A stretch of 63,788 nucleotides of DNA, the filler included, from Candidatus Rokuibacteriota bacterium (lineage in GTDB: Bacteria; JAUVQV01; DATDCY01), in the NCBI GenBank assembly GCA_031406795.1. It is 5 parts of 5 records of this genome, joined end to end, with 100 filler letters (N's around TTAATTAATTAA, not from the genome) between each part and the next. Parts side by side here need not be neighbours in the genome. Positions count along the whole stretch, not along the records: positions 35,698 to 63,788 come from JANOHV010000091.1; 4 more parts are not named here. One strand, written 5' to 3'. A program made the translations under genes and the position numbers. Shown here piece after piece: positions 9,822 to 63,788 of the stretch. The notes under the pieces are model-generated. The model saw only the letters and a program-made list of their open reading frames with translations. It ran no database searches and had not been told where the DNA came from. The first letter of the stretch is position 1, and every line of letters starts with the position of its first letter.

Positions 9822-10499
9822 TCATCTGCCGATGACGCAATACTGCGCTCCCAGCGGGACGCGCGAGAGCCAGGGCTCGGAGAAGCGCAGGAAAGCCAGC
9901 GGCCGGGGGAGGAAGAAGAGAAAGCGGGTCGGCAGCAGCGTGCGGAACCCTGCCGCCCGCAGCAGGCGGCGCGTGCGTGCGGCGGTCACCATCCGGGCGT
10001 CGCGGTCGAACGGGATGCGCTTCATCACGAGCCGGGCCCCGGGATTCAACGGGTTGTTGTCGAACACGGCTAGATAGCCGGCGCCGGCGAGTCGGTCGCG
10101 GATGCCGCTGATGACGGCGAGTTGATCGGCCGGCGGGACATGGTGCAGCACGCCGTTGAGATAGCACAGATCGAAGGGCGCCACGCCGGCGAGCCCGGAA
10201 ACGGGAACGAAAGAGATCGGCCCGGTCTGGTGAGCCGCTGCCCAGGCGAGCGCGTCGGCCGAGGTGTCCGCTCCGACCACCTGCGCACCGGGAAAGGCCG
10301 CTGCCAGCTGGCGGCAGGTATCGCCGGTGCCGCATCCGAAATCCAGGATGCGCCGCGGCCGGAAACCGCCGGGCAGGCGGCGGACGACTTCCGCGACCCG
10401 GCCCTCGGCGAAATAATCCCGGTTCTCCCCGGAGAGACTGATGCCCTGATTGAGCATCTGCTCGTAGTGCTGCGGGCTGTCAAAGGATTCTTCTGACAC
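9822..10499 (-). CDS. Class I SAM-dependent methyltransferase
   Basis: ILDFGCGTG, FDLCYLNGVLHHV. Confidence 0.9.
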   Translation of the reverse strand: MSEESFDSPQHYEQMLNQGISLSGENRDYFAEGRVAEVVRRLPGGFRPRRILDFGCGTGDTCRQLAAAFPGAQVVGADTSADALAWAAAHQTGPISFVPVSGLAGVAPFDLCYLNGVLHHVPPADQLAVISGIRDRLAGAGYLAVFDNNPLNPGARLVMKRIPFDRDARMVTAARTRRLLRAAGFRTLLPTRFLFFLPRPLAFLRFSEPWLSRVPLGAQYCVIGR

Positions 10500-10523: not shown

Positions 10524-11714
10524 TCAGGACTGTCCCCGCAGGTACTCCAGCTTCTCGCCCATCAGGTCGATCACGAAGCCGGTGACCTTCGTGACCCCGA
10601 GAACGATGGCGAGGGACAGGAAGAACGACATCGCGATGAAGCGTGACCAGTGTTCGTAGGTTGCGCCGGTCGTCACCAGTTCCAGGAGGCTCGGCAGGAC
10701 CAGGATGCCCCCGCCGACCGCAAGCGCGGCCGGCGCCGCCCAGAACAGCGACGACGCGAAGAAGCCGTCGAGCAGGCGGTACAGCGACTGCCGGGGCGGC
10801 GGCACCGACAGCGAGAACTTGACGAGGCGGGTGCAGAGATACCCGGCGCACAAGAAGAGACAGCCGCTGATGCCCAGCAGATGGCTGACGATGAAGCGGT
10901 AGATCATCCACTCCAGTACCTCGTCATGCCGCAGGTAGTAGACCAGCGGGCTGACCATGACCGTCCCGGCGACCGCCAGGCAGCCGAGCCCGAGCAGGCC
11001 GAACGGGCGGGACGGGCGGTACAGGAACGCCGTGTTCAGGATGACCCGAAGAAAGCGCAGGCCGTCCTTGGCGACGTGGAGCTTGGATTCGCCTTCGCGC
11101 TCGTGGTAGGGCATGTCCATCTCGATGATCCGGATGTCCTCGCTCAGCATCGCCCGGGCACTCATGGCCGGCGTGAAGTGCAGTCCGTTGGGGAGCGGCA
11201 TCAGCCGGGGCAGGCACGAACGCCGGACCACCCGCATGCCGCTGGCGGTATCCCGGACCCGTCGCGAGGAGAACACCGTCAGCAGCGTCGCGAAGAGGAA
11301 ATTTCCGAGTTGCCGGATGGCCGGCATCTTGCTGCCGGCGTGCAGGCGGCAGCCCAGCACGACATCCGCCTTCTCCCGCTCGAGGGCGAGGCAGAGATCG
11401 GCGAAGAAATTCGGGTCGCAGGTCCCGTCCGCGTCGAGAAAGGACAGCAGATCGGCGTCCGACTGCCGCCAAGCCTCCTTGATGGCGGCGCCGTAGCCGC
11501 GGTTTTCTGCGAAGACGATCAGGCTGATCCGAGGCTCGTACCGCCGCGCCAGCTCGACGGTCCGGTCGGTGGACCCGTCGCTGACCACGGTGATCGCCAC
11601 CTCGGTGACCGGGGATCGGGCGACGATCGCCTCACGCGCCGCCAGCGTGCGTTCGATGATGCTTTCGATGCTCGCCTCTTCGTTGAGCGCGGGAATCGCA
11701 ATCAGGAGCTTCAT
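10524..11714 (-). CDS. GT2 glycosyltransferase (DPM1-like) with C-terminal TM helices
   Basis: IAIPALNEE, VSDGSTDRT, NRGYGAA, FLDADGT, DTASGMR; true start ATG 11714. Confidence 0.92.
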   Translation of the reverse strand: MKLLIAIPALNEEASIESIIERTLAAREAIVARSPVTEVAITVVSDGSTDRTVELARRYEPRISLIVFAENRGYGAAIKEAWRQSDADLLSFLDADGTCDPNFFADLCLALEREKADVVLGCRLHAGSKMPAIRQLGNFLFATLLTVFSSRRVRDTASGMRVVRRSCLPRLMPLPNGLHFTPAMSARAMLSEDIRIIEMDMPYHEREGESKLHVAKDGLRFLRVILNTAFLYRPSRPFGLLGLGCLAVAGTVMVSPLVYYLRHDEVLEWMIYRFIVSHLLGISGCLFLCAGYLCTRLVKFSLSVPPPRQSLYRLLDGFFASSLFWAAPAALAVGGGILVLPSLLELVTTGATYEHWSRFIAMSFFLSLAIVLGVTKVTGFVIDLMGEKLEYLRGQS

Positions 11715-12669: not shown

Positions 12670-12894
12670 CTATGCATGTTTCTGCAGACGCTCAGAGATC
12701 CAGACCTTGATGATTGATTGGCGAGTCACACCGAGTCTTCTTGCTTCCTTATCCAGTGATTCGATCATCCAGACAGGAAAATCAACATTCACCCTACGCT
12801 GTTGACTCCCCGGTCGGGCAGCCTTCGACAAATCAAGCTGCCTCAGGACGCTTTCGCCGTTGTCGAATTTCTCGTCGAATGTTCTAGCTTTCAT
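12670..12894 (-). CDS. brnA: BrnA/CopG-type antitoxin
   Basis: MKARTFDEKFDNGE...RRVNVDFPVWMIESLDKEARRLGVTRQSIIKVW; overlaps brnT. Confidence 0.85.
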   Translation of the reverse strand: MKARTFDEKFDNGESVLRQLDLSKAARPGSQQRRVNVDFPVWMIESLDKEARRLGVTRQSIIKVWISERLQKHA

Positions 12895-13144
12895 AAATGT
12901 GGATCTCCTCACGTCTTGAGCGACGGACCGAGATGATCCGTGTTTTCCCGTTTCTGTAGGTGATAACGGCGGACCAATGTTTAGCGCCGACCTGGCCAAT
13001 GACGACAAATCGTTCTTCATCGTCGGTTTTCGCGGGGATTTCAACCCGTTCGCTGTCTTCCCAGAGAAGTTGCCCTTCAATGAAGTCTATGCCGTGCTTT
13101 TCCATGTTCGATTCTGATTTCGCTTCATCATACTCGAATTCCAT
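12884..13144 (-). CDS. brnT: BrnT ribonuclease toxin
   Basis: MEFEYDEAKSESNMEKHGIDF...RIISVRRSR. Confidence 0.92.
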   Translation of the reverse strand: MEFEYDEAKSESNMEKHGIDFIEGQLLWEDSERVEIPAKTDDEERFVVIGQVGAKHWSAVITYRNGKTRIISVRRSRREEIHIYES

Positions 13145-19925: not shown

Positions 19926-20002
19926 CGATCTGGGTGGCGAACGCTATGAACCCGAGTTCTACTTCTGGAAGAAATAGGGAGCTTCATGCCCATCAAAAAG
20001 TC
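19926..20002 (+). repeat. Direct repeat copy 2: orphan DUF2164 3' end + hsdM start
   Basis: Encodes the same DLGGERYEPEFYFWKK* with five synonymous changes. Confidence 0.9.
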
Positions 20003-22373
20003 TGAACTCTACTCCTCCCTCTGGCGCAGCTGCGACGAGTTGCGCGGGGGAATGGACGCCTCGCAGTACAAGGACTACGTCCTCGTGCTGCTGTTCGTGA
20101 AGTATGTCTCCGACAAGTACGCCGGGCAGAAGAACGCGCTGCTGGAGGTGCCCAAGGGCGGCGGTTTCGCCGACATGGTGGCGCTCAAGGGCGACAAGGA
20201 GATCGGCGATCGGATCAACAAGATCATTGGCAAGCTCGCCGAAGCCAATGACCTCAAGGGTGTAATCGACGTCGCCGACTTCAACGACGCCGACAAGCTC
20301 GGCCGCGGCAAGGAGATGGTGGACCGCCTCTCCAATCTGGTCGCGATCTTCGATTCCCCGGCACTCGACTTCCGTGCCAACCGCGCCGAGGGGGACGACC
20401 TGCTCGGCGACGCCTACGAATACCTGATGCGCCACTTCGCAACCGAGTCCGGCAAGAGCAAGGGACAGTTCTACACGCCGGCCGAGGTCTCGCGGATCAT
20501 CGCCAAGGTGGTCGGCGCCGGTAAGGCGACATCCGCTAACCAGGCGATTTACGACCCGACCGGCGGCTCCGGCTCGCTGGTGATCAAGGCGCACGACGAG
20601 GCGAAAAGCAGCACCGGGCTGGATCTAGCCATCTACATGCAGGAAATGGACAACGCCACGGCCGCCCTTGCCCGGATGAACGCGATCTTGCACGACTGTC
20701 CGACGGCCGAGATCTGGCGGGACAACACCCTCTCGAGCCCGCACTTCAAGCAGGGCGGCACGCTCAAGACCTTCGACTTCGTCGTCGCCAATCCACCCTT
20801 CTCCACCAAGGCCTGGAGCAACGGCTTCAATCCCGCCGAGGACGAATACCAACGCTTCCCCTATGGCCTCCCGCCCGCGAAGAACGGCGATTACGCCTTC
20901 CTGTTGCACGTCCTCGCCTCGCTCAAGAGCACCGGCAAGGGCGCGGTCATCCTGCCGCATGGCGTGCTCTTTCGCGGCGGCGCCGAGGCCGCCATCCGCC
21001 GCGAGATTGTCCGTCGCGGTCTGATCAAGGGCATCATCGGCTTGCCAGCCAACCTCTTCTACGGTGTCGGCATTGCCGCCTGCATTGTCGTGCTGGACAA
21101 GGAGCACGCCGCCGCCCGCAAGGGGATCTTCATGGTGGATGCCTCCAAGGGCTTCATCAAGGACGGCCCGAAGAACCGGCTGCGCGCCCAGGATATCCAC
21201 AAGATCGTCGACATCTTCACCCGCCGGCTCGACCTCCCCCGCTACTCCCGGATGGTGCCGCTCGCCGAGATCGAGGCCAACGACTTCAACCTGAACTTGC
21301 CGCGCTACATCGACAGCACCGAACCCGAGGACATCCAGGACATCGACGGCCATCTGCGCGGCGGCATCCCGGTGCGCGACATCGATGCGCTGGACGCGTA
21401 TTGGGAGGTCTTCCCGGCCGTGCGCGCCGTCCTGTTCAAGAGGGCCGACCGCCCCGGCTACAGCCAGCTGAAAGTGCCCGCGGGGGAGATCAAGAAGACG
21501 ATCTTCGAACATGCCGAATTTTCCGTCTTTACCTCTGGGGTGAATTCCCTTTTCGCGAAGTGGAAGAAGGCCGCGACACACACCCTCAAGGGGGTAGCCA
21601 TTGGCGCCAAGCCCAAGGCGCTGATCGAGGCCCTCTCCGAGGAGATGCTCGAGACCTTCCGCAAGGCGCCGCTTCTCGACGCATACGACATCTACCAGCA
21701 CCTGATGGACTATTGGGCCGAGACGATGCAGGACGACGTTTATATGCTCGTGCACGACGGCTGGAAGGCCGTGATCGACGGGAAGCCGAATGCCGACCTC
21801 CTGCCGCCGACGCTCATCATCGCCCAGTATTTCGGTGCCGAGCAGGCTGGCATCGAGAAGCTCGAAGCCGACCGCGACGCCATCTCCCGCCAGATGGAGG
21901 AGATCGACGAGGAGCAGGGCGGCGAAGAGGGCTTGCTGTCCGACGCCAAGACGGACAAGGGGAAGCTCACCGCAAAGAGCGTCAAGGATCGCCTCAAAGC
22001 CATCAAGGGCGACAAGGTTGCCGCCGAAGAGCGGACGGCGCTGGACGGCTACCTCAGGCTGATTGAACAGGAATCCGAGGCCGGCAGGAAGGTGAAAGTC
22101 GCGCAGAAGGCGCTCGATGTCCTGGTCGCTGCAAAGTACGGAAAACTCACCGAGGCAGAGATCAAGACGCTGGTGGTGGACGACAAATGGCTGACGACGA
22201 TTGCCGCCGCCGTCCAGGGCGAATTGGACCGCGTGTCGCAAACGCTCACCGGCCGCATCCGGCAACTTGCCGAGCGCTATGCGGCCCCACTGCCGCAAAT
22301 CGTCGATGAGGTCGCGACCCTCGCAGCCCGGGTGGACGAGCACCTGACGAAGATGGGGGCAACGTGGCGGTAG
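19986..22373 (+). CDS. hsdM: Type I R-M N6-adenine methyltransferase subunit
   Basis: CDELRGGMDASQYKDY, GQFYTP, IYDPTGGSGSL, VVANPPF, ILPHGVLFRG, FNLNLPRYI. Confidence 0.96.
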   Translation: MPIKKSELYSSLWRSCDELRGGMDASQYKDYVLVLLFVKYVSDKYAGQKNALLEVPKGGGFADMVALKGDKEIGDRINKIIGKLAEANDLKGVIDVADFNDADKLGRGKEMVDRLSNLVAIFDSPALDFRANRAEGDDLLGDAYEYLMRHFATESGKSKGQFYTPAEVSRIIAKVVGAGKATSANQAIYDPTGGSGSLVIKAHDEAKSSTGLDLAIYMQEMDNATAALARMNAILHDCPTAEIWRDNTLSSPHFKQGGTLKTFDFVVANPPFSTKAWSNGFNPAEDEYQRFPYGLPPAKNGDYAFLLHVLASLKSTGKGAVILPHGVLFRGGAEAAIRREIVRRGLIKGIIGLPANLFYGVGIAACIVVLDKEHAAARKGIFMVDASKGFIKDGPKNRLRAQDIHKIVDIFTRRLDLPRYSRMVPLAEIEANDFNLNLPRYIDSTEPEDIQDIDGHLRGGIPVRDIDALDAYWEVFPAVRAVLFKRADRPGYSQLKVPAGEIKKTIFEHAEFSVFTSGVNSLFAKWKKAATHTLKGVAIGAKPKALIEALSEEMLETFRKAPLLDAYDIYQHLMDYWAETMQDDVYMLVHDGWKAVIDGKPNADLLPPTLIIAQYFGAEQAGIEKLEADRDAISRQMEEIDEEQGGEEGLLSDAKTDKGKLTAKSVKDRLKAIKGDKVAAEERTALDGYLRLIEQESEAGRKVKVAQKALDVLVAAKYGKLTEAEIKTLVVDDKWLTTIAAAVQGELDRVSQTLTGRIRQLAERYAAPLPQIVDEVATLAARVDEHLTKMGATWR

Positions 22374-22454
22374 ACGGCCGGCCGGGATTGCTGGAGGCTG
22401 ACATGGCTGTCAGCCGATGGTCCCGTGTACGCCTGCGGGGTCCTGCCGCTGCGC

Positions 22455-22492
22455 ACCCCCACCGCGCTCCCTTCGGTCCGCGCGGCGGGGGT
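22455..22492. repeat. GC-rich hairpin in the 200-bp hsdM-hsdS spacer (REP-like)
   Basis: ACCCCCACCGCGC ... GCGCGGCGGGGGT, one mismatch. Confidence 0.45.
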
Positions 22493-22574
22493 CCCCCGCT
22501 TCGCGTCACCCCTTCCGGCTTGTTACGGTGTGTATGATGGGACGATGCGAATCCGCCTGCAAGGCAATTAGCCG

Positions 22575-23834
22575 ATGACCCACCCACAGAAAAATGAGCC
22601 CCTCAATCCCGGGTACAAGCAGACCGAGGTAGGTGTGATTCCGGAGGATTGGAACGTCCATGAACTCGCTTCCATCTCCGAGCGAATCATGGTTGGCATT
22701 GCGAGCGCTGCAACTCACGCCTATCGGCCGAGAGGCGTACCGCTGCTGAGAAACCAAAACATCAAGCAGGGATACTTGGATGACGCCGACATCTTGCATG
22801 TTGATCCAACCTACGAATCCACCTTTCGGAATAAGCGTCTTCAAGAAGGCGACCTTCTGACGGCCCGGACTGGCTACCCAGGCATGACCTGCGTCGTCCC
22901 CCATCGTTACGATGCGGCACAAAGCTTCACAACGCTAATAACACGCCCGAACCCGGGAGCAATTGATTCCTTCTTTCTTTGCCAGTTTATCAACTCTGAG
23001 GAGGGGCAAAGATTCTTTACTTCAAGTCAGATCGGTGGTGCGCAGCAAAATGTGAATGCTGGCGCTCTGAAGAGTATGCCAGTCCCTGTTCCTCCACTAT
23101 ATGAACAACGTGCCATCGCGGCAGCGCTGGGGGATGTGGATGCGCTGATCGGCGCGCTGGACCGGCTCATCGCCAAGAAGCGCGACCTCAAGCAGGCCGC
23201 CATGCAGCAACTCCTCACCGGCCAGACCCGCCTCCCCGGCTTCCATGGGGAATGGGCGGTGAAGAAGCTCGGAGATTTCGCCGAGGTTGACCCAGACAAT
23301 CTCGGAGCCGGCACTGCCCCGAATTATACGTTCAAGTACATCTCCCTCGAAGATGTCGATTCAGGTGTGCTCAAAGGCCATTCCGAACAACTATTCAGCA
23401 CCGCCCCCTCACGAGCACGACGGAAATTACATCAGGGTGACGTTCTTGTTTCGACGGTGCGTCCCAATCTGAAGTCACACCTTCTCTTCACCAACGAAGA
23501 GCCGCACTGGATTTGTTCAACCGGCTTCACCGTGGTGCGATGCACGGAGGGGGTTGCTCACGCCGGTTATGTTTTCTTCCATCTATTCGGGCATGTCATC
23601 TCACGACAGATCGAAACCTTGCTGACCGGATCCAACTATCCCGCGATCAACGGGAAGGACGTTCGCGCTCTTGAGATCCCGCTCCCATCCCTCCCTGAAC
23701 AAACCGCCATCGCCGCCGTCCTCTCCGACATGGACGCTGAGATCGCGGCCCTCGAAGGCCGCCGCGACAAGACCCGGCTCCTCAAGCAGGGGATGATGCA
23801 GGAGCTGCTGACCGGCAAGACGCGGTTGATCTGA
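22575..23834 (+). CDS. hsdS: Type I R-M specificity subunit
   Basis: PGYKQTEVGVIPEDW, two TRDs, conserved P..EQ.AIAA.L.D.DA.I.AL...K..KQ.MMQ.LLTG.TRL repeats. Confidence 0.95.
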   Translation: MTHPQKNEPLNPGYKQTEVGVIPEDWNVHELASISERIMVGIASAATHAYRPRGVPLLRNQNIKQGYLDDADILHVDPTYESTFRNKRLQEGDLLTARTGYPGMTCVVPHRYDAAQSFTTLITRPNPGAIDSFFLCQFINSEEGQRFFTSSQIGGAQQNVNAGALKSMPVPVPPLYEQRAIAAALGDVDALIGALDRLIAKKRDLKQAAMQQLLTGQTRLPGFHGEWAVKKLGDFAEVDPDNLGAGTAPNYTFKYISLEDVDSGVLKGHSEQLFSTAPSRARRKLHQGDVLVSTVRPNLKSHLLFTNEEPHWICSTGFTVVRCTEGVAHAGYVFFHLFGHVISRQIETLLTGSNYPAINGKDVRALEIPLPSLPEQTAIAAVLSDMDAEIAALEGRRDKTRLLKQGMMQELLTGKTRLI

Positions 23835-23855
23835 GGATGCAGTATTCTGTTGAAC

Positions 23856-23893
23856 ATTCCCAATCTGGGGTTTATCGTTCCCAATATGGGAAC
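23856..23893 (+). promoter_or_regulatory. Tandem palindromic operators of the HTH-MNT gene
   Basis: Perfect GTTCCCA-ATA-TGGGAAC (23877-23893) over the start codon, plus an imperfect upstream copy ATTCCCAATCTGGGG. Confidence 0.6.
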
Positions 23894-24515
23894 GGAGAAG
23901 AAGCCTTCCGCCGGCGACGCCCTCCCCTGCATCGGGCTCGCAGACGCGCTATTTACCAAGGTCCAGCAGCGTGTCCTGGGAGTTCTGTTCGGGAATTCCG
24001 GTCGGACGTTCTATGCCAACGAGATCATCGCGCTTGCGGGCAGCGGCGTTGGCGCCGTCCAGCGGGAGCTGGCGCGGTTGGCCGCCTCCGGGCTGGTAAC
24101 GGTCGCGAGAGTCGGCAAGCAGAAGCACTACCAGGCAAATGCCGATTCCCCCGTCTTTGAAGAACTGCGGGGACTCATTCTCAAGACGTCCGGCCTTGCC
24201 GATGTCCTGAGGACGGCTCTGGCGCCGTTGGCCGCGCAGATCGACGCAGCGTTCGTCTACGGCTCCGTGGCCAAGGGGCAGGATTCCGCCGTCAGCGATA
24301 TTGATCTCATGGTCGTGAGCGAGAACCTGACCCACGCCGATCTGTTCGGGGCAATTGAAGCCGCCGTCTCGAGGCTCGGCCGAGCGGTGAATCCCACGGT
24401 CTATTCGCGGCAGGAACTCGAAAAGAGGATCCGGGAGAAGAACGCATTCATCATGCGGGTACTGGGCCAGCCCAGGCTCTGGCTGATCGGGGGAGAGCAT
24501 GACCTCGCCGCTTGA
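23886..24515 (+). CDS. HTH + minimal nucleotidyltransferase (MNT) antitoxin
   Basis: wHTH (GAVQRELARL..SGLV), AFVYGSVAKG....SDIDLMVV. Confidence 0.9.
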   Translation: MGTEKKPSAGDALPCIGLADALFTKVQQRVLGVLFGNSGRTFYANEIIALAGSGVGAVQRELARLAASGLVTVARVGKQKHYQANADSPVFEELRGLILKTSGLADVLRTALAPLAAQIDAAFVYGSVAKGQDSAVSDIDLMVVSENLTHADLFGAIEAAVSRLGRAVNPTVYSRQELEKRIREKNAFIMRVLGQPRLWLIGGEHDLAA

Positions 24516-24535
24516 AACTTGAGCCGGCCGGGTAC
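24499..24535 (+). pseudogene. Stub of the cognate (HEPN-type) partner gene
   Basis: ATG overlapping the MNT 3' end reads MTSPLET* only; the partner body is absent (identity inferred from the usual MNT-HEPN pairing). Confidence 0.35.
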
Positions 24536-24613
24536 CAGATTAGCTTCAAGCTGCTGCGGGGGTGAGGCGCGCCGTAAACAGTGATTGAGGGGCTGAAAGG
24601 ATCGGCTCGTCCA

Positions 24614-24743
24614 CGCCATCGCCGCCGTCCTCTCCGACGTGGACGCCGGGATCGCGGCCCACGAAGCCCGCCGCGACACGACCCAGCTCCTCAAGCAGGG
24701 GATGATGCAGGAGCTGCTGACCGACAATACCCGTCTGGTTTGA
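24614..24743 (+). pseudogene. hsdS: Second, orphan hsdS 3' end (direct repeat of 23705-23834)
   Basis: 130 bp colinear with the hsdS end, 14 mismatches by my count; AIAAVLSDVDAGIAAHEARRDTTQLLKQGMMQELLTDNTRLV*. Confidence 0.88.
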
Positions 24744-24755
24744 CTGCCATGGCAG

Positions 24756-24783
24756 TTGACGATCGCGCATCGAGCGTTATACT
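24756..24783 (+). promoter_or_regulatory. Sigma70 promoter of the downstream TA pair
   Basis: TTGACG-16 nt-TATACT, then AGGAGG RBS. Confidence 0.6.
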
Positions 24784-24815
24784 CATACACATATAGTTAC
24801 ACCCAAGGAGGCGAT

Positions 24816-25127
24816 ATGAAGCGCACCAACATCATGCTCAGCGACGAGCAGCACCGGCGGCTGAAGGTCAGATCGCGCCGACAGGGACGGACCCTTGGGG
24901 AGCTTGTCAGGCAGGCGGTGGATGCTTCCTACGGCAAGCATGACGCGCTTGAGGTGCGCCGCCGAATCGCTCTTGATTCCTATCAGGCCGGATTTATAAG
25001 TCTCGGCAAACTCTCCGAAGTTCTCGGTCTCGATCCGGTGAGCACGCGGCTGTATCTGCGTGAGGCGAGCATACCCTCGCAGTCGTCATCGATCGAAGAC
25101 GTCCGCCAGGATGCCGTCAACGCCTGA
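24816..25127 (+). CDS. Antitoxin, RHH + UPF0175-like domain
   Basis: MKRTNIMLSDEQHRRLK...TLGELVRQAVD; YQAGFISLGKLSEVLGL. Confidence 0.8.
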   Translation: MKRTNIMLSDEQHRRLKVRSRRQGRTLGELVRQAVDASYGKHDALEVRRRIALDSYQAGFISLGKLSEVLGLDPVSTRLYLREASIPSQSSSIEDVRQDAVNA

Positions 25128-57846: not shown

Positions 57847-57870
57847 AGGATGGTGCGCGCAAGTTGCCCG

Positions 57871-58606
57871 ATGAGCGAGCCGACGCCGCGCTTCTGGAGC
57901 GTGTTCTTCGAGGTCTACGAGGCGCTGCCCCGCCAAGGCCCGGGCAAACGCGCCTGCGCCGCAAAGGCTCTCGGGCTTTGCCGGGATCTGCCGGCGGCGC
58001 CGGCCGTGCTGGACCTTGGCTGCGGCGTCGGCGGACAGACACTCCACCTCGCTGGGCTCACCTCCGGGTCCATCGTCGCCCGGGACAGCCATGCCCCAAG
58101 CATCGAGAAGCTCCGGGCGACGGTCGCGGAGCGCGGGCTTTCGGCCCGCATCCGCCCGGTGGTCGGCGACATGGCGCACCTGGACTTCCCCCCCGGGGAA
58201 CTTCGACCTTGTCTGGTCCGAGGGGGCGCTCTACAACGTCGGGATCGAAAGGGCCCTGCGGACGTGCAGCCCCCTGCTCGAGCCCGGCGGCTACGTCGCT
58301 TTCACCGATGCCGTCTGGAGAAAGGTACATCCCCCGCCGGAGGTGAAGGCGAGCTTCGATCTGGACTACCCGACCATGGGCCGGGTCCCAGACGTTCTGA
58401 CAGCCATCGCGAGATGCGGGTTCTCGCTCGTCGGGCACTTCACCTTGCCGGACGAGGCTTGGTGGGATGACTTCTACTCCCCGATGCAGCGGCGGATCGC
58501 GGAGTTGCGCGGCACGTACGCGGCTGACAGCGAGGCGCTGGCTGTGCTCGATCAGTTCGCGCAAGAGCCGGAGATGTACCGTTTGCACTCGGAGTACTAC
58601 GCCTAC
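57871..58606 (+). pseudogene. Class I methyltransferase, frameshifted at a C7G4 run and 3'-truncated
   Basis: LPRQGPG, VLDLGCGVG in one frame; FDLVWSEGALY...YYAY in another; the end is fused to the XRE relic. Confidence 0.8.
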
Positions 58607-58988
58607 CTTCCGGCCTCTTCTTCCTCCTCTCCCACTTCGCCAACCTCCCTGGATCAACCTTGAGGCGCCGGGCCCTGGCCTCCTGACTTAGCCCGCGGTA
58701 CCTCCGAATCCAGGTCAGCCGTTCCCCAGGCGTCCAGTCCGGGTCTTAAGGGGAGTAACCGAGGAATCCGATGATCTTCGGCCAGCAGTGGAAGGTCGGA
58801 GTGGCCTTCCCGCGCTCCCAGAGGTAAACGCAACACTCCGTCGTTCCGATTCGTTGCCCCACCTCCTGCTGGAGCAGTCCCAGCTCAAACCGTCTTTTCC
58901 TGAGGTGGTAGGCGATTGACCATAAGGGAGCATGTTGTTGATATGGTTCGGATTTCATTGCTTTGAGAGTAAAACAGCAGAAAGGCAA
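58606..58988 (-). pseudogene. Double-HTH XRE gene, copy 1 (in-frame TAA, end lost)
   Basis: LPFCCFTLKA...YHLRKRRFELGLLQQEVGQRIG...FLGYSP*DPDWTPGERLTWIRRY.GLSQE; homologous to 61565-61993. Confidence 0.85.
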
Positions 58989-58996
58989 CGTAACGG

Positions 58997-59473
58997 TGCA
59001 AGTGCGGCTTCCGGGGGGATCGCCTGCATGCCTGTCGCTGCACTCCGCACGATGTGGACGAGTACCGTTCGCGTATTTCCGGGCCGCTGCTGGATCGCAT
59101 CGACCTGCACGTCGAGGTACCGGCGTTGACATATGACGAAATCGCGTCGGCGCCGCAGGGGGAGGGGACTGCTGCAGTGAGAGCGCGGGTTGAGCGCGCG
59201 CGGGCGGCGCAACGCGAGCGCCTCAAGGGAGCGGCGATCTACTGCAACGCGCAGATGGGGGCGCGCGAGGTCCGGGAACATTGCCGCCACGACGAAGGCG
59301 GCGCCCGCCTGCTGGAAGGGGAGATGCGCGCGCTCGGACTCTCGGCGCGCGGCTATGCGCGGGTGTTGAAAGTTGCGCGGACGATCGCGGATCTGGCGGG
59401 TGAGCCGAAGATCGGCGCAACTCACGTCGCCGAAGCGATCCAGTATCGGGAGCAGCCGCGTCACATGGTTTGA
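58997..59473 (+). pseudogene. comM: comM/yifB (Mg-chelatase-like ATPase) 3' portion, copy 1
   Basis: CKCGFRGD..HACRCTP...YRSRISGPLLDRIDLHVEVP...LSARGYARVLKVARTIADL...HVAEAIQYR; begins at the CxCG motif, no 5' part. Confidence 0.92.
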
Positions 59474-59482
59474 TTCAGATGG

Positions 59483-59782
59483 TCACCCGTGGATCTTCAC
59501 GCCTACGCGATCAATGTGCTCTCGGAGCGCTTGGGATTGGATGGCAACCATCGCCTTGACATCGAAGCGATACGGCAACGGCAGGTCTTCCAACTCGGCG
59601 GCGATCGCTTCGGCAGCCAACTCGTCTTCGATACCTTCGAGCGCCAAGTCGATATCTGAAGCCGGTGAGGCTGTGCCCTTGGCGCGTGAACCGAACATGA
59701 CGGCGCCGGTGATCTCTCCGTGACGTTTGAGTACCCCACGGATGAGATCCATCTCCCGATCCGACAGACCGAATCTCGCCAT
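59483..59782 (-). CDS. Minimal nucleotidyltransferase (MNT) antitoxin
   Basis: MFGSRAKG....SDIDLAL, LPLPYRFDV. Confidence 0.92.
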   Translation of the reverse strand: MARFGLSDREMDLIRGVLKRHGEITGAVMFGSRAKGTASPASDIDLALEGIEDELAAEAIAAELEDLPLPYRFDVKAMVAIQSQALREHIDRVGVKIHG

Positions 59783-60195
59783 CAATCCGTCCTGTGTGCC
59801 ATGAACCAGCCATGCAGTGCGTCGATTGCTACGGAGTAGCGCTTGTCGATGGCCTGAACGGCCTTCTCGAAAGTCGCCGCATCGTAGGTGTGGGACAGCA
59901 CGTTCCGGTGGTCGAGCATGTCGATCCAGACTTGACCGTCGCCGAGAATCTTCGCGGCAAACGCCTCTTTTATAACCGTGCGCGGCGTGACCGGTTCGAT
60001 TACCGTGCCCTCGTTTTCAAGGTAGTCCTTGAGCGTCTTCCAGGCGAGTTCCAGGGCGAACTCAAATCGCTGGACGGTTCCCTCCTTCTCCAGGGCGGAC
60101 AAGGTGTCGATGCCGCGTTTCAGCGGTTCGCGCAAGAGAACAACAGCGCGGTCGAAATTCTGGAAGCGTTGTTTCCAGCGGATGTCACGGGTCAT
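59782..60195 (-). CDS. HEPN (HI0074-type nucleotidyltransferase substrate-binding) toxin
   Basis: DIRWKQRFQNF, VQRFEFALELAWKTLKDYL, RNVLSHTYD (RxxxxH). Confidence 0.92.
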   Translation of the reverse strand: MTRDIRWKQRFQNFDRAVVLLREPLKRGIDTLSALEKEGTVQRFEFALELAWKTLKDYLENEGTVIEPVTPRTVIKEAFAAKILGDGQVWIDMLDHRNVLSHTYDAATFEKAVQAIDKRYSVAIDALHGWFMAHRTD

Positions 60196-60322
60196 GCTCA
60201 ATCTCCTTCGCTTCCACTGTGGCGAAAACATACTACCCGATTATCTTGAATAATACGCACATCGAACACGCCAAGGAAATACACACCTCGTCCTCTGCCC
60301 GAGGTAGAAACGGAGCACGCTT

Positions 60323-61333
60323 TCAGTTGAACTGGCTCCGGTCCTTGATTCGTGCGGCTTCCTCCTGCCCCTGCATTTCCTCCCACGTCCGGCCCTTGCG
60401 CAAATCCTCCCAGCAGAAACGGACCCCCTGGTTGTCGTTCGGGTTGAGCGAGAGAATGCGCTCGAACACCATCAGTGCCTCGGAAGTGCGCCCGAGACGC
60501 CAGAGGCACAGGCCGTAGCCGTGGAGGCACCGGAGGAACGGCCGGTTGTAGATGCGGCCCCACAACAGCACGCCGTCGTAGAAGGGTGGCAACGAGAGTT
60601 CGCCGATGCGGATCCCGATCTCGTAGTGGACGAGTGCGCGTTTCGGCGATCGGTCGAATTCGAGGTTGCCGAGGTGCGCGTGCGCATCGATGCAGCGAAG
60701 ATCCCGGAGCAGCATGTCCATCAGCAGGTCACGGGCGCCATCGACATCGCCCACCTCCGCGAGTTCAGCCGCGACGCAGGTCGGATTCTCATCGAAATCA
60801 TCATCGTCGGGGAACGCGCCCCAGGCGATGGGGTCCATGCCGTAGCTTGCCCGCGGCTTTGCGGTGAGCTTTCTCCAGAGCGGGGCGTACGGTTCGGGAT
60901 TGCGATACGGCTCGGAGTTGGACCGCAGATTGCGGAGGTCATAGTCATGAAGCGGCAGGGGTGTGAGGCCGAGCTTCGCCACGTCGATGCGCGGATCCTC
61001 CATCTTGCCGCTGGCGTACGCGTCGCCGCGCCAGGTCCAGCGCTTGTCCACGACGAGTGTCACCAGGTGCCCCGGCGCGACCTCCGTGGCGTCGCCGGAG
61101 CGGAATGTGACCTGAACGTCTTCGGAGGGGATCCTGACCCGTGCCGAATTCCGATTGACCTTGAGGACGATCGCTTCGACGCGTTGCTTCTGATCGCCCA
61201 TTGTCGAAGTTTCGGGCAGGCCAAGAATCTCGGCCCGGGCGCGCATGACATGGAGGCGTGCAGCGGTGTAGGACTCTCCCGTCTTGCACTGGCGTTCGCG
61301 GATGATTGTCTTGAGATCTTTGTGCGCGGTCAT
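60323..61333 (-). CDS. TPR-containing protein with N-terminal 'IRER..KTGESYTAAR' domain and central beta domain
   Basis: GAGGAG RBS; C-terminal DAHAHLGNLEF...NRPFLRCLHGYGLCLWRLG...LNPNDNQGVRF. Confidence 0.85.
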   Translation of the reverse strand: MTAHKDLKTIIRERQCKTGESYTAARLHVMRARAEILGLPETSTMGDQKQRVEAIVLKVNRNSARVRIPSEDVQVTFRSGDATEVAPGHLVTLVVDKRWTWRGDAYASGKMEDPRIDVAKLGLTPLPLHDYDLRNLRSNSEPYRNPEPYAPLWRKLTAKPRASYGMDPIAWGAFPDDDDFDENPTCVAAELAEVGDVDGARDLLMDMLLRDLRCIDAHAHLGNLEFDRSPKRALVHYEIGIRIGELSLPPFYDGVLLWGRIYNRPFLRCLHGYGLCLWRLGRTSEALMVFERILSLNPNDNQGVRFCWEDLRKGRTWEEMQGQEEAARIKDRSQFN

Positions 61334-61377
61334 CGACGTCTCCTCGCTCTGCGCCGCCGTGGCCCCCGCCCAGAGGC

Positions 61378-61492
61378 TGCGCAACACGAAGATACGCACC
61401 CGCCCCGGCCGGAGGAGTGAACTCCCCTTTGCCCCGTTCGAGGGATCCTGCGGGGGAGGACCCACCGGGGTTGGGCGTCGGTGCCGCCGTAC
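61378..61492 (-). ncRNA. Candidate structured 5' leader RNA
   Basis: Nested stems GCGGCAC(C)GA/UCGUGUUGC and CCCCGG/CCGGGG enclosing hairpins GGGUCCU/AGGAUCC and GGGAG-UUCA-CUCCU; TTGACA at 61527-61522 upstream. Confidence 0.5.
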
Positions 61493-61564
61493 GCATGAAT
61501 TTGCCGCAACAAAGGTGGCGCTGTCAATCCCAATATTCTTTCTCCGCAATAGTTCCCACTGCCT

Positions 61565-61993
61565 TCAAGAGCCGATGTTGATGAACTCTATTAGTTGGGT
61601 CATGAATCTGCCTTTTGGCTCTCTCACTCCACTCTCCCACCTCGCCAGCGTCCCCGGATCAACCCGGAGGCGCCGGGCCATGGACTCCTGGCTCAGCCCG
61701 AGGTACCTCCGGATCCAACTCAGTCGTTCCCCGGGCATCCAACCCGGGTCAAAGGGGCAGTAGCCGAGGAATTCGATGATCTTCGGCCAGTAGGGGAAGG
61801 TCGGAGTGGCCTTTTCGCACTCCCAAAGGGCCACGCAACACTCTGACACACCGATTCGTTGCCCCACCTCCTGCTGGCGGAGTCCCAGCTCAAACCGCCT
61901 TTTCCTGATGTGGTACGCGGTCGACCATAGGCGAGCATGTTGTTGATAGGGAAGGGGTTTCTTTGCTTTCAGGCTGAAACAGCAGAAAGTCAA
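61565..61993 (-). CDS. Double-HTH XRE-family regulator, copy 2 (intact)
   Basis: IRKRRFELGLRQQEVGQRIGVSECCVALWE and IRRYLGLSQESMARRLRVDPGTLARWESG; TTG start abuts the comM junction. Confidence 0.85.
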   Translation of the reverse strand: MTFCCFSLKAKKPLPYQQHARLWSTAYHIRKRRFELGLRQQEVGQRIGVSECCVALWECEKATPTFPYWPKIIEFLGYCPFDPGWMPGERLSWIRRYLGLSQESMARRLRVDPGTLARWESGVREPKGRFMTQLIEFINIGS

Positions 61994-62001
61994 CGCAACG
62001 G

Positions 62002-62478
62002 TGCAAGTGTGGCTTCCGGGGTGACCGCCTGCGCGCCTGCCGCTGCAATCCGCACGATGTGGACGCGTACCGTTCGCGGATCTCCGGGCCGCTGCTCGAT
62101 CGCATCGACCTGCACGTCGAGGTCCCGGCGCTGGCTAATGAAGAAATCGCCTCGGCGCCGACGGGGGAAGGAACTGCTGCGGTGAGGGCGCGGGTTGAGA
62201 GCGCGCGGACGATGCAGCGCGAGCGCCTAAAGGGAGCTGCGATCTACTGCGATGCCCAGATGGGGGCGCGCGAGGTCCGGGAGCATTGCCGCCACGACGA
62301 AGGCGGCGCCCGCCTGCTGGAAGGGGCGATGCGCGCGCTCGGTCTCTCCGCGCGCGGCTATGCGCGAGTGCTGAAAGTTGCGCGCACGATCGCGGATCTG
62401 GCGGGTGAACGGACCATTGGGCTCATCCACATAGCCGAGTCGATCCAGTATCGGGAACAGCCGCGGCATCTAGGCTGA
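62002..62478 (+). pseudogene. comM: comM/yifB 3' portion, copy 2
   Basis: Same breakpoint and length as copy 1, diverged but open: CKCGFRGDRLRACRCNP...HIAESIQYREQPRHLG. Confidence 0.92.
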
Positions 62479-62681
62479 CGGCAGCAGACGGGTCTCTTGC
62501 GCGGCCTGCCAGTTTTCGACATTCGGCGCCTGGGAAGAAAAAGAAAACCTATGGTCTTGCATTCAGCAGGCAGGTCCGAAATGATAGACTGTGAATACAT
62601 GGGAACGTTGGCCGGTCGCAAACCTCGACGTTGGGCGAGACACCAGGTCTGTAGTGAAATAGTAAACAGGGCGGAGGGACT

Positions 62682-62930
62682 ATGAGCACGGCGGAAAAGA
62701 TCTACGAACACGTCAAGGCACTCCCCGAGACTGTAGCGCTGGAGATACTTGATTATGTGGAATTCGTGGAATCGAGGTCGCGGCGCACGGGAGCGGGTGT
62801 GTCAGCCGTCGGGTCTGATCGCCTGCGCAGAATGCGCGCCGCGTGCGGTGTTTGGCGTGATCGCGACGATCTTCCTGATCTTCGAGCCCTTCGTGGAGAG
62901 TGGGAGCGTGCGCGGAGCCAAAAATCGTGA
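62682..62930 (+). CDS. DUF2281-like VapB antitoxin
   Basis: EKIYEHVKALPE....EILDYVEFVE; CGVWRDRDDLPD.RALR.EW. Confidence 0.8.
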   Translation: MSTAEKIYEHVKALPETVALEILDYVEFVESRSRRTGAGVSAVGSDRLRRMRAACGVWRDRDDLPDLRALRGEWERARSQKS

Positions 62931-63316
62931 CGCCTGAGAATACCATCCTTGTCGACACCGATATTCTCATCGATTATCTTCGTGGTATGCCGCCGGCAAT
63001 CCAATATCTGGAGGCCTCGGGCGCTGATCTCTGTCTCTCCGTAGTCAATGTCGCGGAACTCCACGCGGGGGTACGTGATCATGAGCGCGAAGCGGTCAAT
63101 ACCCTCCTGGGATGCTTCACGATAGTCCCGCTGAACAAAGAGATTGCTGTTCGCGGCGGGTTGTTGCGCCGTGACTTCGGCAAAAGCCATGGCGTCGAGT
63201 TGGCCGACGCCCTCATCGCGGCGACGGTGGAGAGTTTAAGGTGCACCTTGGCCACTCTGAACCGAAAGCACTATCCGATGCTCTCTTCGGTGATGGTTCC
63301 CTACACGAAGGAATAG
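62927..63316 (+). CDS. vapC: VapC PIN-domain toxin
   Basis: ILVDTDILIDYLRG, SVVNVAEL.AG, LADALIAAT, LATLNRKHYP; GTGA overlap. Confidence 0.93.
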   Translation: MTPENTILVDTDILIDYLRGMPPAIQYLEASGADLCLSVVNVAELHAGVRDHEREAVNTLLGCFTIVPLNKEIAVRGGLLRRDFGKSHGVELADALIAATVESLRCTLATLNRKHYPMLSSVMVPYTKE

Positions 63317-63375
63317 ACATCCTATTCCAGACCGACCTGGTTCCTGAAGCGGAGATGAAAGAGCACCCCGCCACT

Positions 63376-63660
63376 TCAGATATCGCTAGGGAGAAGCTTC
63401 TGCAATCGGATCAGGAATCCACCCATCGGCTCCTTCTTCCCCGTCTCCCACTTCGCCAACGTCCCTGGATCGACCTTGAGCCGCGGGGCCATTGCCTCCT
63501 GGCTCAGCCCGAAGTACCTCCGGATCCAGGTCAGACGTTCCCCTGGCGTCCAGCCCGGGTCGAAGGGACAATAGCCCAGGAATTCGATGATCCTAGCCCG
63601 GAAGGGGAGGGTTGGGGAGGTCCGATTCGTCTCCCAGAGGCACACCGAGCATTCGGTGGA
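63376..63660 (-). pseudogene. Double-HTH XRE gene, copy 3 (5'-truncated)
   Basis: TECSVCLWE...IIEFLGYCPFDPGWTPGERLTWIRRYFGLSQEAMA.RLKVDPGTLAKWE; N-terminus and junction missing. Confidence 0.85.
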
Positions 63661-63788
63661 CCGTAACAGCAACGTAAGTCCTCGCCCTACCCCGACTGCA
63701 CATTTTCCTCGTCGGCAGGCGTCTTCGTGATGGCCGCCGGGTCACGGTCGAGCGCCGGTCCGGCCGGGCGGTCTACTGCAGGGTGTTC

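Follow-up and report, generated by a model that had tools for sequence, protein, structure and literature searches.

The comM gene, which encodes a Mg chelatase-like protein, is the most enriched target of large serine recombinases (LSRs), accounting for 12.4% of the predicted site-specific LSRs according to a survey of these enzymes (PMC10083194), in the main text of which no mention of a split recombinase gene was found. The present analysis concerns the right end of a 63,788-nt stretch of DNA from a Candidatus Rokuibacteriota metagenome-assembled genome (MAG; GCA_031406795.1), the whole of which is referred to here as the window. In this region a gene for a protein with two XRE-type helix-turn-helix (HTH) motifs stands back to back with the 3' end of comM, and the pair occurs twice. 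The region is probably a decayed part of an accretion array at the comM attachment site of an LSR family that carries its own attachment site, attP, within the recombinase reading frame. The first-pass annotation of the window had rightly named comM as an LSR target, and the family responsible is identified below. Like other LSR elements that target comM, this family features Resolvase and Recombinase domains, imperfect inverted arms around a central dinucleotide, and a target inside comM; unlike them, it has attP in the recombinase frame, an extra C-terminal double XRE-type HTH, and derived units that lack the catalytic part.

An attachment (att) site within the gene of the recombinase itself is the defining feature of the SSV1-type suicidal integrases of archaeal viruses and plasmids, which target tRNA genes. 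The gene of such an archaeal integrase is partitioned upon integration, so that its N- and C-terminal parts come to lie at the two ends, and a 2021 review describes integrases with an own-gene att site as found exclusively in Archaea (PMC8371274). Here, too, the att site lies in the integrase gene and the gene is split. On the other hand, SSV1 employs a tyrosine recombinase and belongs to Archaea, whereas the present family features a serine recombinase (Resolvase/Recombinase), resides in bacterial MAGs, and has a protein-coding target.

Several described systems also stack units that lack a recombinase of their own. Cis-mobilizable elements (CIMEs) are non-autonomous, att-flanked units that are derived from, or parasitic on, an integrase-bearing element. 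CIMEs, accretion among streptococcal integrative conjugative and integrative mobilizable elements, and tandem staphylococcal cassette chromosomes mec (SCCmec) all share with the array discussed here att-flanked non-autonomous units stacked at one target gene end. CIMEs and SCCmec differ from it in recombinase family, host range and target, and each unit here ends in a fragment of the recombinase gene. Integrons likewise gather recombinase-less units of variable content at one site, and insertion in the present case would, as in an integron, regenerate the acceptor and leave the newest unit beside the platform; the units here, by contrast, comprise one to several genes on either strand, each with a copy of the target-gene 3' end, and are not promoterless single-ORF (open reading frame) cassettes. 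Of the parts that define an integron (an IntI tyrosine recombinase, attI and attC), none is found: the window and the 74 unit ORFs of relatives contain no Phage_integrase match, attC structures not having been searched for separately. Integrons, Tn7-like targeting of comM and Xer-dependent elements were all dropped as candidates upon the finding of the serine recombinase fusion, Tn7 and Xer without a separate test. Rhs/CdiA arrays consist of a full-length gene followed by displaced 3' fragments that all start at one conserved motif. In those orphan modules, alternative toxin tips are swapped by homologous recombination, whereas here equivalent comM ends would be left by insertion at an att site. 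In the literature outside subscription journals and supplements, no published description was found of a bacterial LSR with attP in its own gene, or of modules in which an XRE gene adjoins a comM 3' end.

The XRE-comM junction and its recombinase family

For the XRE protein of the window, 73 relatives of comparable length were found, most of them on short metagenome contigs. An alignment of 23 XRE relatives retrieved 277 relatives from a one-genome-per-species set, and 77 loci were kept from the best 80 of the 277. Across these loci and the window, tblastn with the comM 3' end gives 72 matches that start at the codons of a CxCG motif. In 56 of the 72 an XRE frame is situated on the opposite strand at a distance of exactly 5 nt (4 nt in one more, 2 nt in another two), while nine of the remaining 13 are full-length comM genes. 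Sixty modules are found in 52 sources, namely 51 of the 77 loci and the window, and the MAG records that hold them carry 17 phylum names; two records titled as whole chromosomes (L034 and L065) have the same junction, and eight sources (L001, L008, L024, L042, L044, L055, L076 and the window) feature at least two modules. On the comM strand, the consensus of the 60 modules is ...GCAAAAAGGCAACGCA-NNNN-TGYCCNTGCGG..., with the central TG present in 58, the XRE frame running from a TTG inside GGCAACG in 56, and the exact arm GGCAACGCA in 32. The first-pass annotation had spoken of a conserved junction. The same junction is indeed widespread, but its non-coding DNA amounts to only 5 nt between the XRE and comM frames, because the XRE frame begins at the TTG within it. 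Looking for the junction and the XRE gene in relatives also brought to light intact comM genes and a serine recombinase family.

The origin of the XRE gene can be read from 26 loci in which a copy is not beside a comM 3' piece. In five of these (L009, L010, L028, L032 and L040) the arm is accompanied by its inverted copy, GGCAACGCA-N10-TGCGTTGCC, centred on CA. In L040 and L032 the XRE frame, moreover, stays open for 494 and 519 codons upstream, yielding ORFs of 638 aa (L040, 6322-8238) and 645 aa (L032, 8474-10411) that match Resolvase (E ~5e-32), Recombinase (~4e-20) and two stretches of HTH_3 in Pfam. The palindrome, whose inverted repeat is perfect, is inside the recombinase frame and encodes ...GQRNLIPA/LPFC.... 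Residues 1-139 of the XRE protein of the window (copy b, below) align by BLASTP with residues 495-634 of a 646-aa recombinase (P0087) at 39% identity (E 5e-33). What the first-pass annotation took for a separate XRE gene is, as these alignments indicate, the last ~140 codons of a ~640-aa LSR gene, severed at the in-frame attP; we refer to this fragment as XRE-C. Since attP is situated within the reading frame, integration splits the recombinase gene.

The corresponding N-terminal parts appear among the relatives of the full-length enzyme. The C-terminal 218 residues of the L040 protein, used as query, retrieved 326 relatives, and roughly half of the 120 listed are proteins of 519-709 aa with HTH_3. 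From P0136 onward the listed relatives are 424-584 aa in length, mostly ~500 aa, with Resolvase and Recombinase domains only and no HTH, and these ~500-aa proteins align with just the first third of the L040 query, at ~63-76% identity. The C-terminal tail ...QRN[FLH][RT][DG]S... is present in nine of ten such proteins that were fetched; in seven of the nine it runs on to a final A or T, as in ...QRNFRDSSRRQA, while P0148 and P0160 end differently. Joining a recombinase at the central CA to the antisense strand of the comM 5' part (FMLAAMNP codons) predicts an ending NL[RMT][GD]S[SW]..A-stop in five of the nine full-length comM loci. Because their tails match antisense comM 5', the ~500-aa proteins would be the heads of split genes that face the comM 5' part.

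This second hybrid is also seen as DNA in L028, where a decayed recombinase N-part leads into GGCAACACA-ACCT-CA-GGGA-TTCATGGCC, the last part being antisense comM. The attB of the nine full-length comM genes reads ...GCSATGAAYCCN-TG-YCCNTGYGG..., centred on bases one and two of the codon for the first Cys in CxCG, and we infer that crossover takes place at this TG. Given that the hybrid with the recombinase N-part facing comM 5' is attL, the junction in the window, with XRE-C beside comM 3', would be attR. Short att sites with inverted arms and a central dinucleotide, the hallmark of an LSR element, were found in the attP, attB and attR of relatives; the fusion, the in-frame attP and both hybrid sites are all legible in the sequences themselves. 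In L011 an XRE-C is followed, 9.6 kb downstream on the same strand and at the locus edge, by a recombinase N-part; both ends of one autonomous element within a single locus were seen in none of the 77 loci. When 54 orphan XRE-C sequences and 55 fused ones are placed in one tree, 23 label changes are needed, as compared with a shuffled mean of 36.7, and only three of them are forced by well-supported branches. Orphan XRE-C does not appear to form one separate lineage, since it is interspersed with the fused form, at weakly supported branches.

Other candidates were tried and rejected. In L009, L032 and L040 the stretch ahead of XRE is conserved because it codes for the recombinase, and Rfam gave no match at the gathering score in L009, L010, L028, L032 or L040. 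tRNA genes as another target beside comM-less XRE copies were rejected after a scan of 19 loci, in which one unrelated tRNA-Pro was found (L059). As for a separate conserved recombinase beside the modules, all-against-all clustering of 2479 locus ORFs gave no family in most loci besides XRE, comM and antisense frames; annotated clusters comprise kinases, two-component systems, RHS proteins, TraG/HerA-like ATPases, ABC proteins and IS1595 transposases. When fused forms were sought among longer proteins with the window XRE as query, three matches were obtained, none of them a recombinase. In collections of cultured phages and of plasmids the best matches are generic LSRs at 23-30% identity, and none with the same architecture at higher identity was found.

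Some loci depart from the usual arrangement. In L022 (3261-4710) and L075 (8855-10333) the comM 5' part is head-to-tail with XRE-C, with a polarity opposite to the usual one, and the centre in L075 is a TG followed by the recombinase-side half-spacer; these junctions look like the product of recombination in the wrong orientation. A complete palindromic attP precedes XRE-C in L010 (~3520-3560) and L028 (~9960-10000) with no recombinase N-part adjacent, and these may be non-autonomous elements with a proper attP. In L047 (8357-10345) a distant recombinase (~25% identity) is followed by XRE-C, and a second XRE-C (11371-11661) lies 1 kb on, with no comM piece; this may be a sister family with another target.

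The array in the window

The array and its left flank are laid out as follows, in positions of the window.

57850..58663, plus strand: SAM (S-adenosylmethionine)-dependent methyltransferase of the left flank, in two overlapping frames (57850-58470 and 58016-58663)
58611..58988, minus strand: XRE-C copy a, remnant of the C-terminal double-HTH fragment of the recombinase
58984..59008, plus strand: attR-type site 1, GGCAACGTA-ACGG-TG-CAAG-TGCGG, central TG at 58997-58998
58994..59473, plus strand: comM 3' end copy 1, 159 codons from R-CKCG to the stop, displaced or cassette-borne
59483..60231, minus strand: cargo of unit 1, MNT (59483-59785) and HEPN-like NTase_sub_bind (59782-60231)
60323..61549, minus strand: cargo of unit 1, protein with a C-terminal TPR repeat (TPR_14, E 5.4e-06), start codon uncertain
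61565..61993, minus strand: XRE-C copy b, double-HTH frame of 142 codons with a TTG start (Pfam HTH_3, two stretches)
61989..62013, plus strand: attR-type site 2, GTCAACGCA-ACGG-TG-CAAG-TGTGG, central TG at 62002-62003
61999..62478, plus strand: comM 3' end copy 2, 159 codons with an R-CKCG start (Mg_chelatase positions 159-206 and Mg_chelatase_C, E 2.1e-31)
62682..63316, plus strand: cargo of unit 2, VapB-like DUF2281 antitoxin (62682-62930) and PIN toxin (62900-63316)
63376..63677, minus strand: XRE-C copy c, 5'-truncated remnant (HTH_3, E 1.9e-09, one stretch)

The module of double-HTH XRE gene, 5 nt and comM 3' end is present at 58611-59473 and 61616-62478, and the offset of exactly 3005 bp that had been noticed at first pass is borne out by the alignment of the two copies, which is gap-free from ~58611/61616 to ~59465/62470, with ~87% identity, zero indels, and 82-94 identical positions per 100-column block. 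A repeat search returns a family 300 nt long, whose members start 3005 and 1811 nt apart. The two comM pieces, correctly described as having a common CxCG start and as diverged yet open to their stops (starts 58994 and 61999, stops 59473 and 62478), are 86.8% identical over 477 nt and differ at 13, 11 and 39 first, second and third codon positions. The corresponding ratio of nonsynonymous to synonymous substitution rates (dN/dS) is 0.18, with a dS of 0.40: the copies have diverged under purifying selection. Pfam finds in copy 1, as in copy 2, Mg_chelatase positions 159-206 and the whole of Mg_chelatase_C (E 1.5e-33). XRE copies a and b are 81.7% identical in nucleotide sequence (73% by tblastn), with a dN/dS of 0.32.

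Only two attR-type sites (58984..59008 and 61989..62013) are found in the window, and the XRE-C copies are in uneven condition. The double-XRE genes of the first-pass annotation do feature two HTHs, but copy b is the sole intact one of the three. Copy a contains an in-frame TAA at 58746-58748 and has lost its ~17 last codons where a frameshifted methyltransferase abuts it. The third copy, which had been said to close the next unit, is present as copy c, but it is reduced to the second HTH and a portion of the first, with a 5' part unrelated to copies a and b; the window stops at 63788, too early for a third comM piece to be seen. The last 111 nt (63678-63788) are homologous neither to XRE copies a and b nor to the counterpart in a related locus (L001, below); other sequence seems to have taken the place of the 5' part of copy c and of the expected att site.

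On the left, the methyltransferase can be read only by switching frame near 58190-58200: Methyltransf_25 (positions 1-65) is matched in one of the two frames and Methyltransf_11 (positions 57-95) in the second. Its final codons and 3' end enter the repeat at the truncated copy a. At this gene, which is a pseudogene or else carries a sequencing error, the array breaks off on the left. What had been presented as an array is, in the window, a relic of one, with comM 5' cut off at its left end and a break at 63677 at its right.

The cargo differs from one unit to the other, as proposed at the outset. Unit 1 carries the overlapping MNT and HEPN genes (Polbeta 8.4e-12, NTP_transf_2 2.2e-08, NTase_sub_bind 6.9e-35) together with the TPR protein, of which no relative was found in the 77 loci; unit 2 carries the PIN toxin gene (1.8e-13) with the antitoxin-like DUF2281 gene (1.7e-04) upstream and overlapping. 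As adjacent or overlapping small genes for toxin and partner domains, the MNT-HEPN and VapBC pairs would both qualify as type II toxin-antitoxin systems. The absence from the window of a recombinase and of the comM 5' part, stated in the first-pass annotation, holds good: a Pfam scan of 68 window ORFs found no recombinase, integrase or further member of the Mg_chelatase family, and tblastn with two recombinase N-parts and one comM 5' part (E <= 5) gave chance-level matches only, none better than E 1.2.

The ~58 kb to the left of the array encode alaS, hisS, phosphoenolpyruvate (PEP) carboxylase, purE, a P-type ATPase, htpX and a MacB-type ABC pair by Pfam. Amid this housekeeping DNA are found defence and toxin-antitoxin genes, namely a type I restriction-modification pair HsdM/HsdS followed by a nucleotidyltransferase-like gene and a ribbon-helix-helix (RHH)/UPF0175 antitoxin-like gene at 19986-25127 and, further left, a BrnT-family toxin gene at 12884-13144. 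An ORF at 15498-16241 matches only the last ~60 positions of the ribonucleotide reductase barrel domain, together with a TSCPD domain, and may be a fragment or a stand-alone C-terminal protein.

Recombinase-less units in relatives

As in the window, XRE-C is found in relatives in a second form, a unit in which variable cargo lies between a comM 3' end (from TG to stop) and XRE-C, often several in tandem. In nine loci, a full-length comM stands at one end and a displaced 3' piece behind XRE-C at the other; six of these comM genes are confirmed by Pfam, at 510-526 aa. There are exceptions among the nine, in that comM is on the strand opposite to expectation in L016 and L073, and its frame is interrupted in L001. 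The units with a comM 3' end of their own and no recombinase, which the first-pass annotation had postulated, are accordingly observed in these nine loci beside full-length comM with an intact attB. Among 74 ORFs (of at least 90 aa, with ORFs under 90-100 aa and overlapping frames left out) of ~22 bounded units in 17 loci, none matches Resolvase, Recombinase or Phage_integrase, and one matches rve (L046, an insertion sequence (IS)-type transposase); tblastn with two N-part queries found no recombinase N-part within the bounded units. The duplicated comM segment extends from the TG to the stop: the copies are 98-99% identical in L065 and ~90% identical in L069, the duplicated part ending at the stop in both, and only ~70% identical in L050. 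In L076 whole units are paralogous.

The cargo of these relatives includes RHS toxins, histidine and Ser/Thr kinases, PIN toxins, a Shedu-like protein, GH2 glycosidases, and secreted proteins sorted by the type IX secretion system (T9SS). Cargo across relatives is not specifically defence. The expectation that such islands would be rich in defence genes fails, the cargo of relatives being mainly neither defence nor toxin-antitoxin.

A few loci are of note in their own right. In a Dehalococcoidia locus (L045, 797-11107), five XRE-C copies surround a full-length comM, three of them with no comM 3' piece, and the cargo includes a Shedu-like SduA_C protein. IS1595-family transposase genes lie 1-1.5 kb downstream of XRE-C in three loci (L007, 11064-11840; L011, 11546-12334; L054, 10699-11355). 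The arrangement of comM and its displaced 3' piece is inverted in L016 (9528-15193), one cargo ORF of which has a weak Piwi match (E 2.4e-4, below the Pfam cut-off).

The second unit of the window array recurs in the Rokubacteria MAG locus L001, in which positions 12526-10850, as reverse complement, align with window 62002-63677. The number of identical positions per 50 columns is 35-48 in the comM 3' end, 47-50 in the VapBC cargo (62579-63477) and 41-49 in XRE-C copy c, such that the cargo is ~99% identical in nucleotide sequence over ~900 nt and its flanks 70-97%. Beyond 63677 the homology to L001, in which the XRE-C copy is intact, is gone, and no synteny is found between the left flank of the window and L001. 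The VapBC unit comes directly after comM in L001 and is preceded by unit 1 in the window. That it is first in one and second in the other fits accretion next to comM, although L001 may instead have lost a unit. The accretion array proposed in the first-pass annotation is thus largely supported in its architecture, whereas its dynamics are unproven.

Mechanism and rival explanations

The following scheme would account for these structures. Recombination of attP with comM, centred on the TG of the first CxCG Cys codon, would split both genes, giving XRE-C joined to comM 3' (attR) and comM 5' joined to the recombinase N-part (attL). A unit furnished with a comM 3' end could then enter attB, where it would repair comM, regenerate attB and shift older units downstream, so that units would accumulate with the newest beside comM 5'. 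Movement would call for either an intact recombinase acting in trans or RecA-type recombination via the flanks of ~480 bp of comM 3' and 420 bp of XRE-C. We infer the repair of comM with regeneration of attB, and likewise the supply of the intact recombinase from elsewhere. In the window, two units (MNT-HEPN with TPR, and VapBC) would have survived in an array cut from comM 5' at ~58611 and broken at ~63677, with two of its three XRE-C copies damaged.

Several observations weigh against this scheme. There is no recombinase, attL or comM 5' in the window, and therefore nothing ties the array to a comM in its own genome. Canonical attP by attB recombination splits comM without duplicating its 3' end, and the first unit to bear a comM 3' end must therefore have come about otherwise, perhaps through aberrant excision of an integrated element or through a canonical deletion between attB and attP where an intact recombinase gene lies downstream of comM. 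An exact terminal overlap, as expected of excised circles, is found in none of 23 whole contigs; in L048 and L066 the comM pieces at the two contig ends are 97-98% identical, not 100%. The locus set is biased toward split forms, because the query was an alignment of stand-alone XRE proteins and the best 80 of 277 were taken, and all the related sequences are MAG contigs. The cargo shared with L001, more alike than its flanks, fits homologous recombination through those flanks at least as well as site-specific transfer. Finally, characterised LSRs are not known to recombine an attR-type site with attB, the reaction that capture would require; homologous recombination of the Campbell type across the 480-bp repeat could serve in its place.

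These last two points also speak for a different history, in which the cassettes were never handled by a recombinase but arose by rare aberrant excision, as in specialised transducing phages, and were then spread and swapped by homologous recombination, for example after natural transformation, with comM 3' and XRE-C serving as arms. The ~900-nt tract at 62579-63477 would then be an imported tract with crossovers in its flanks, and direct repeats of ~480 bp are long enough for RecA. We nevertheless regard this as unlikely, as displaced comM pieces all start at the same TG and the duplicated piece ends, in independent lineages, at or within ~15 nt of the stop, which random aberrant excision would not yield, and as comM proteins are only ~40-55% identical between phyla, too low for cross-phylum homologous capture.

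A much less probable explanation is that XRE-C and the comM C-terminal fragment constitute a selected two-gene module with its own function, for instance a regulator or a recombination directionality factor freed by integration. The XRE-C frame, 131-205 codons from the TTG, is kept in 54 of 60 modules, and dN/dS within the window is low for both parts. However, these low values may date from a time when both were parts of working genes, two of the three XRE-C copies in the window are broken, the 5 nt between the divergent frames leave no room for a promoter or ribosome-binding site, and orphan and fused XRE-C are interspersed in the tree, weak as its support is. Simple local tandem duplication of the XRE-comM 3' segment, or an assembly artefact of the metagenome bin, could be suspected from the frameshifted methyltransferase and the ragged ends of the array, but is scarcely credible when the copies enclose unrelated cargo and differ by 13%, with substitutions of coding type, when the junction is shared by 51 of the 77 other loci, whole-chromosome records included, and when unit 2 recurs beside full-length comM in L001.

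Returning to the accretion array at an LSR attachment site, a more speculative extension, which we put forward tentatively, is that the LSR acts, in bacteria of many phyla, as a self-splitting switch. The orphan double-HTH protein could serve as a regulator or steer the direction of recombination, and cassettes that bring an extra comM 3' end on one flank and an extra recombinase 3' end on the other could repair either gene and regenerate an acceptor, together making up an integron-like capture platform.

What is chiefly new is that the XRE gene and its junction would be the scar left by a self-splitting LSR family, one widely distributed among uncultured bacteria. The genes beside comM fragments that are annotated as “XRE-family transcriptional regulator”, thousands in all, would then be broken recombinase tails, and many “recombinase family proteins” of ~500 aa would be the matching heads, which bears on annotation as well as on the mining of LSRs for genome engineering. 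The family would represent a bacterial serine counterpart to the self-destroying tyrosine integrases of Archaea, and thereby a simple, testable model of built-in directionality control. If the units do repair their target and regenerate the acceptor, they would amount to a gene-accretion system with an integron-like logic, set in phyla of soil, sediment and groundwater in which integrons are not the main story, and with a cargo that ranges from toxin-antitoxin pairs to kinases and RHS toxins.

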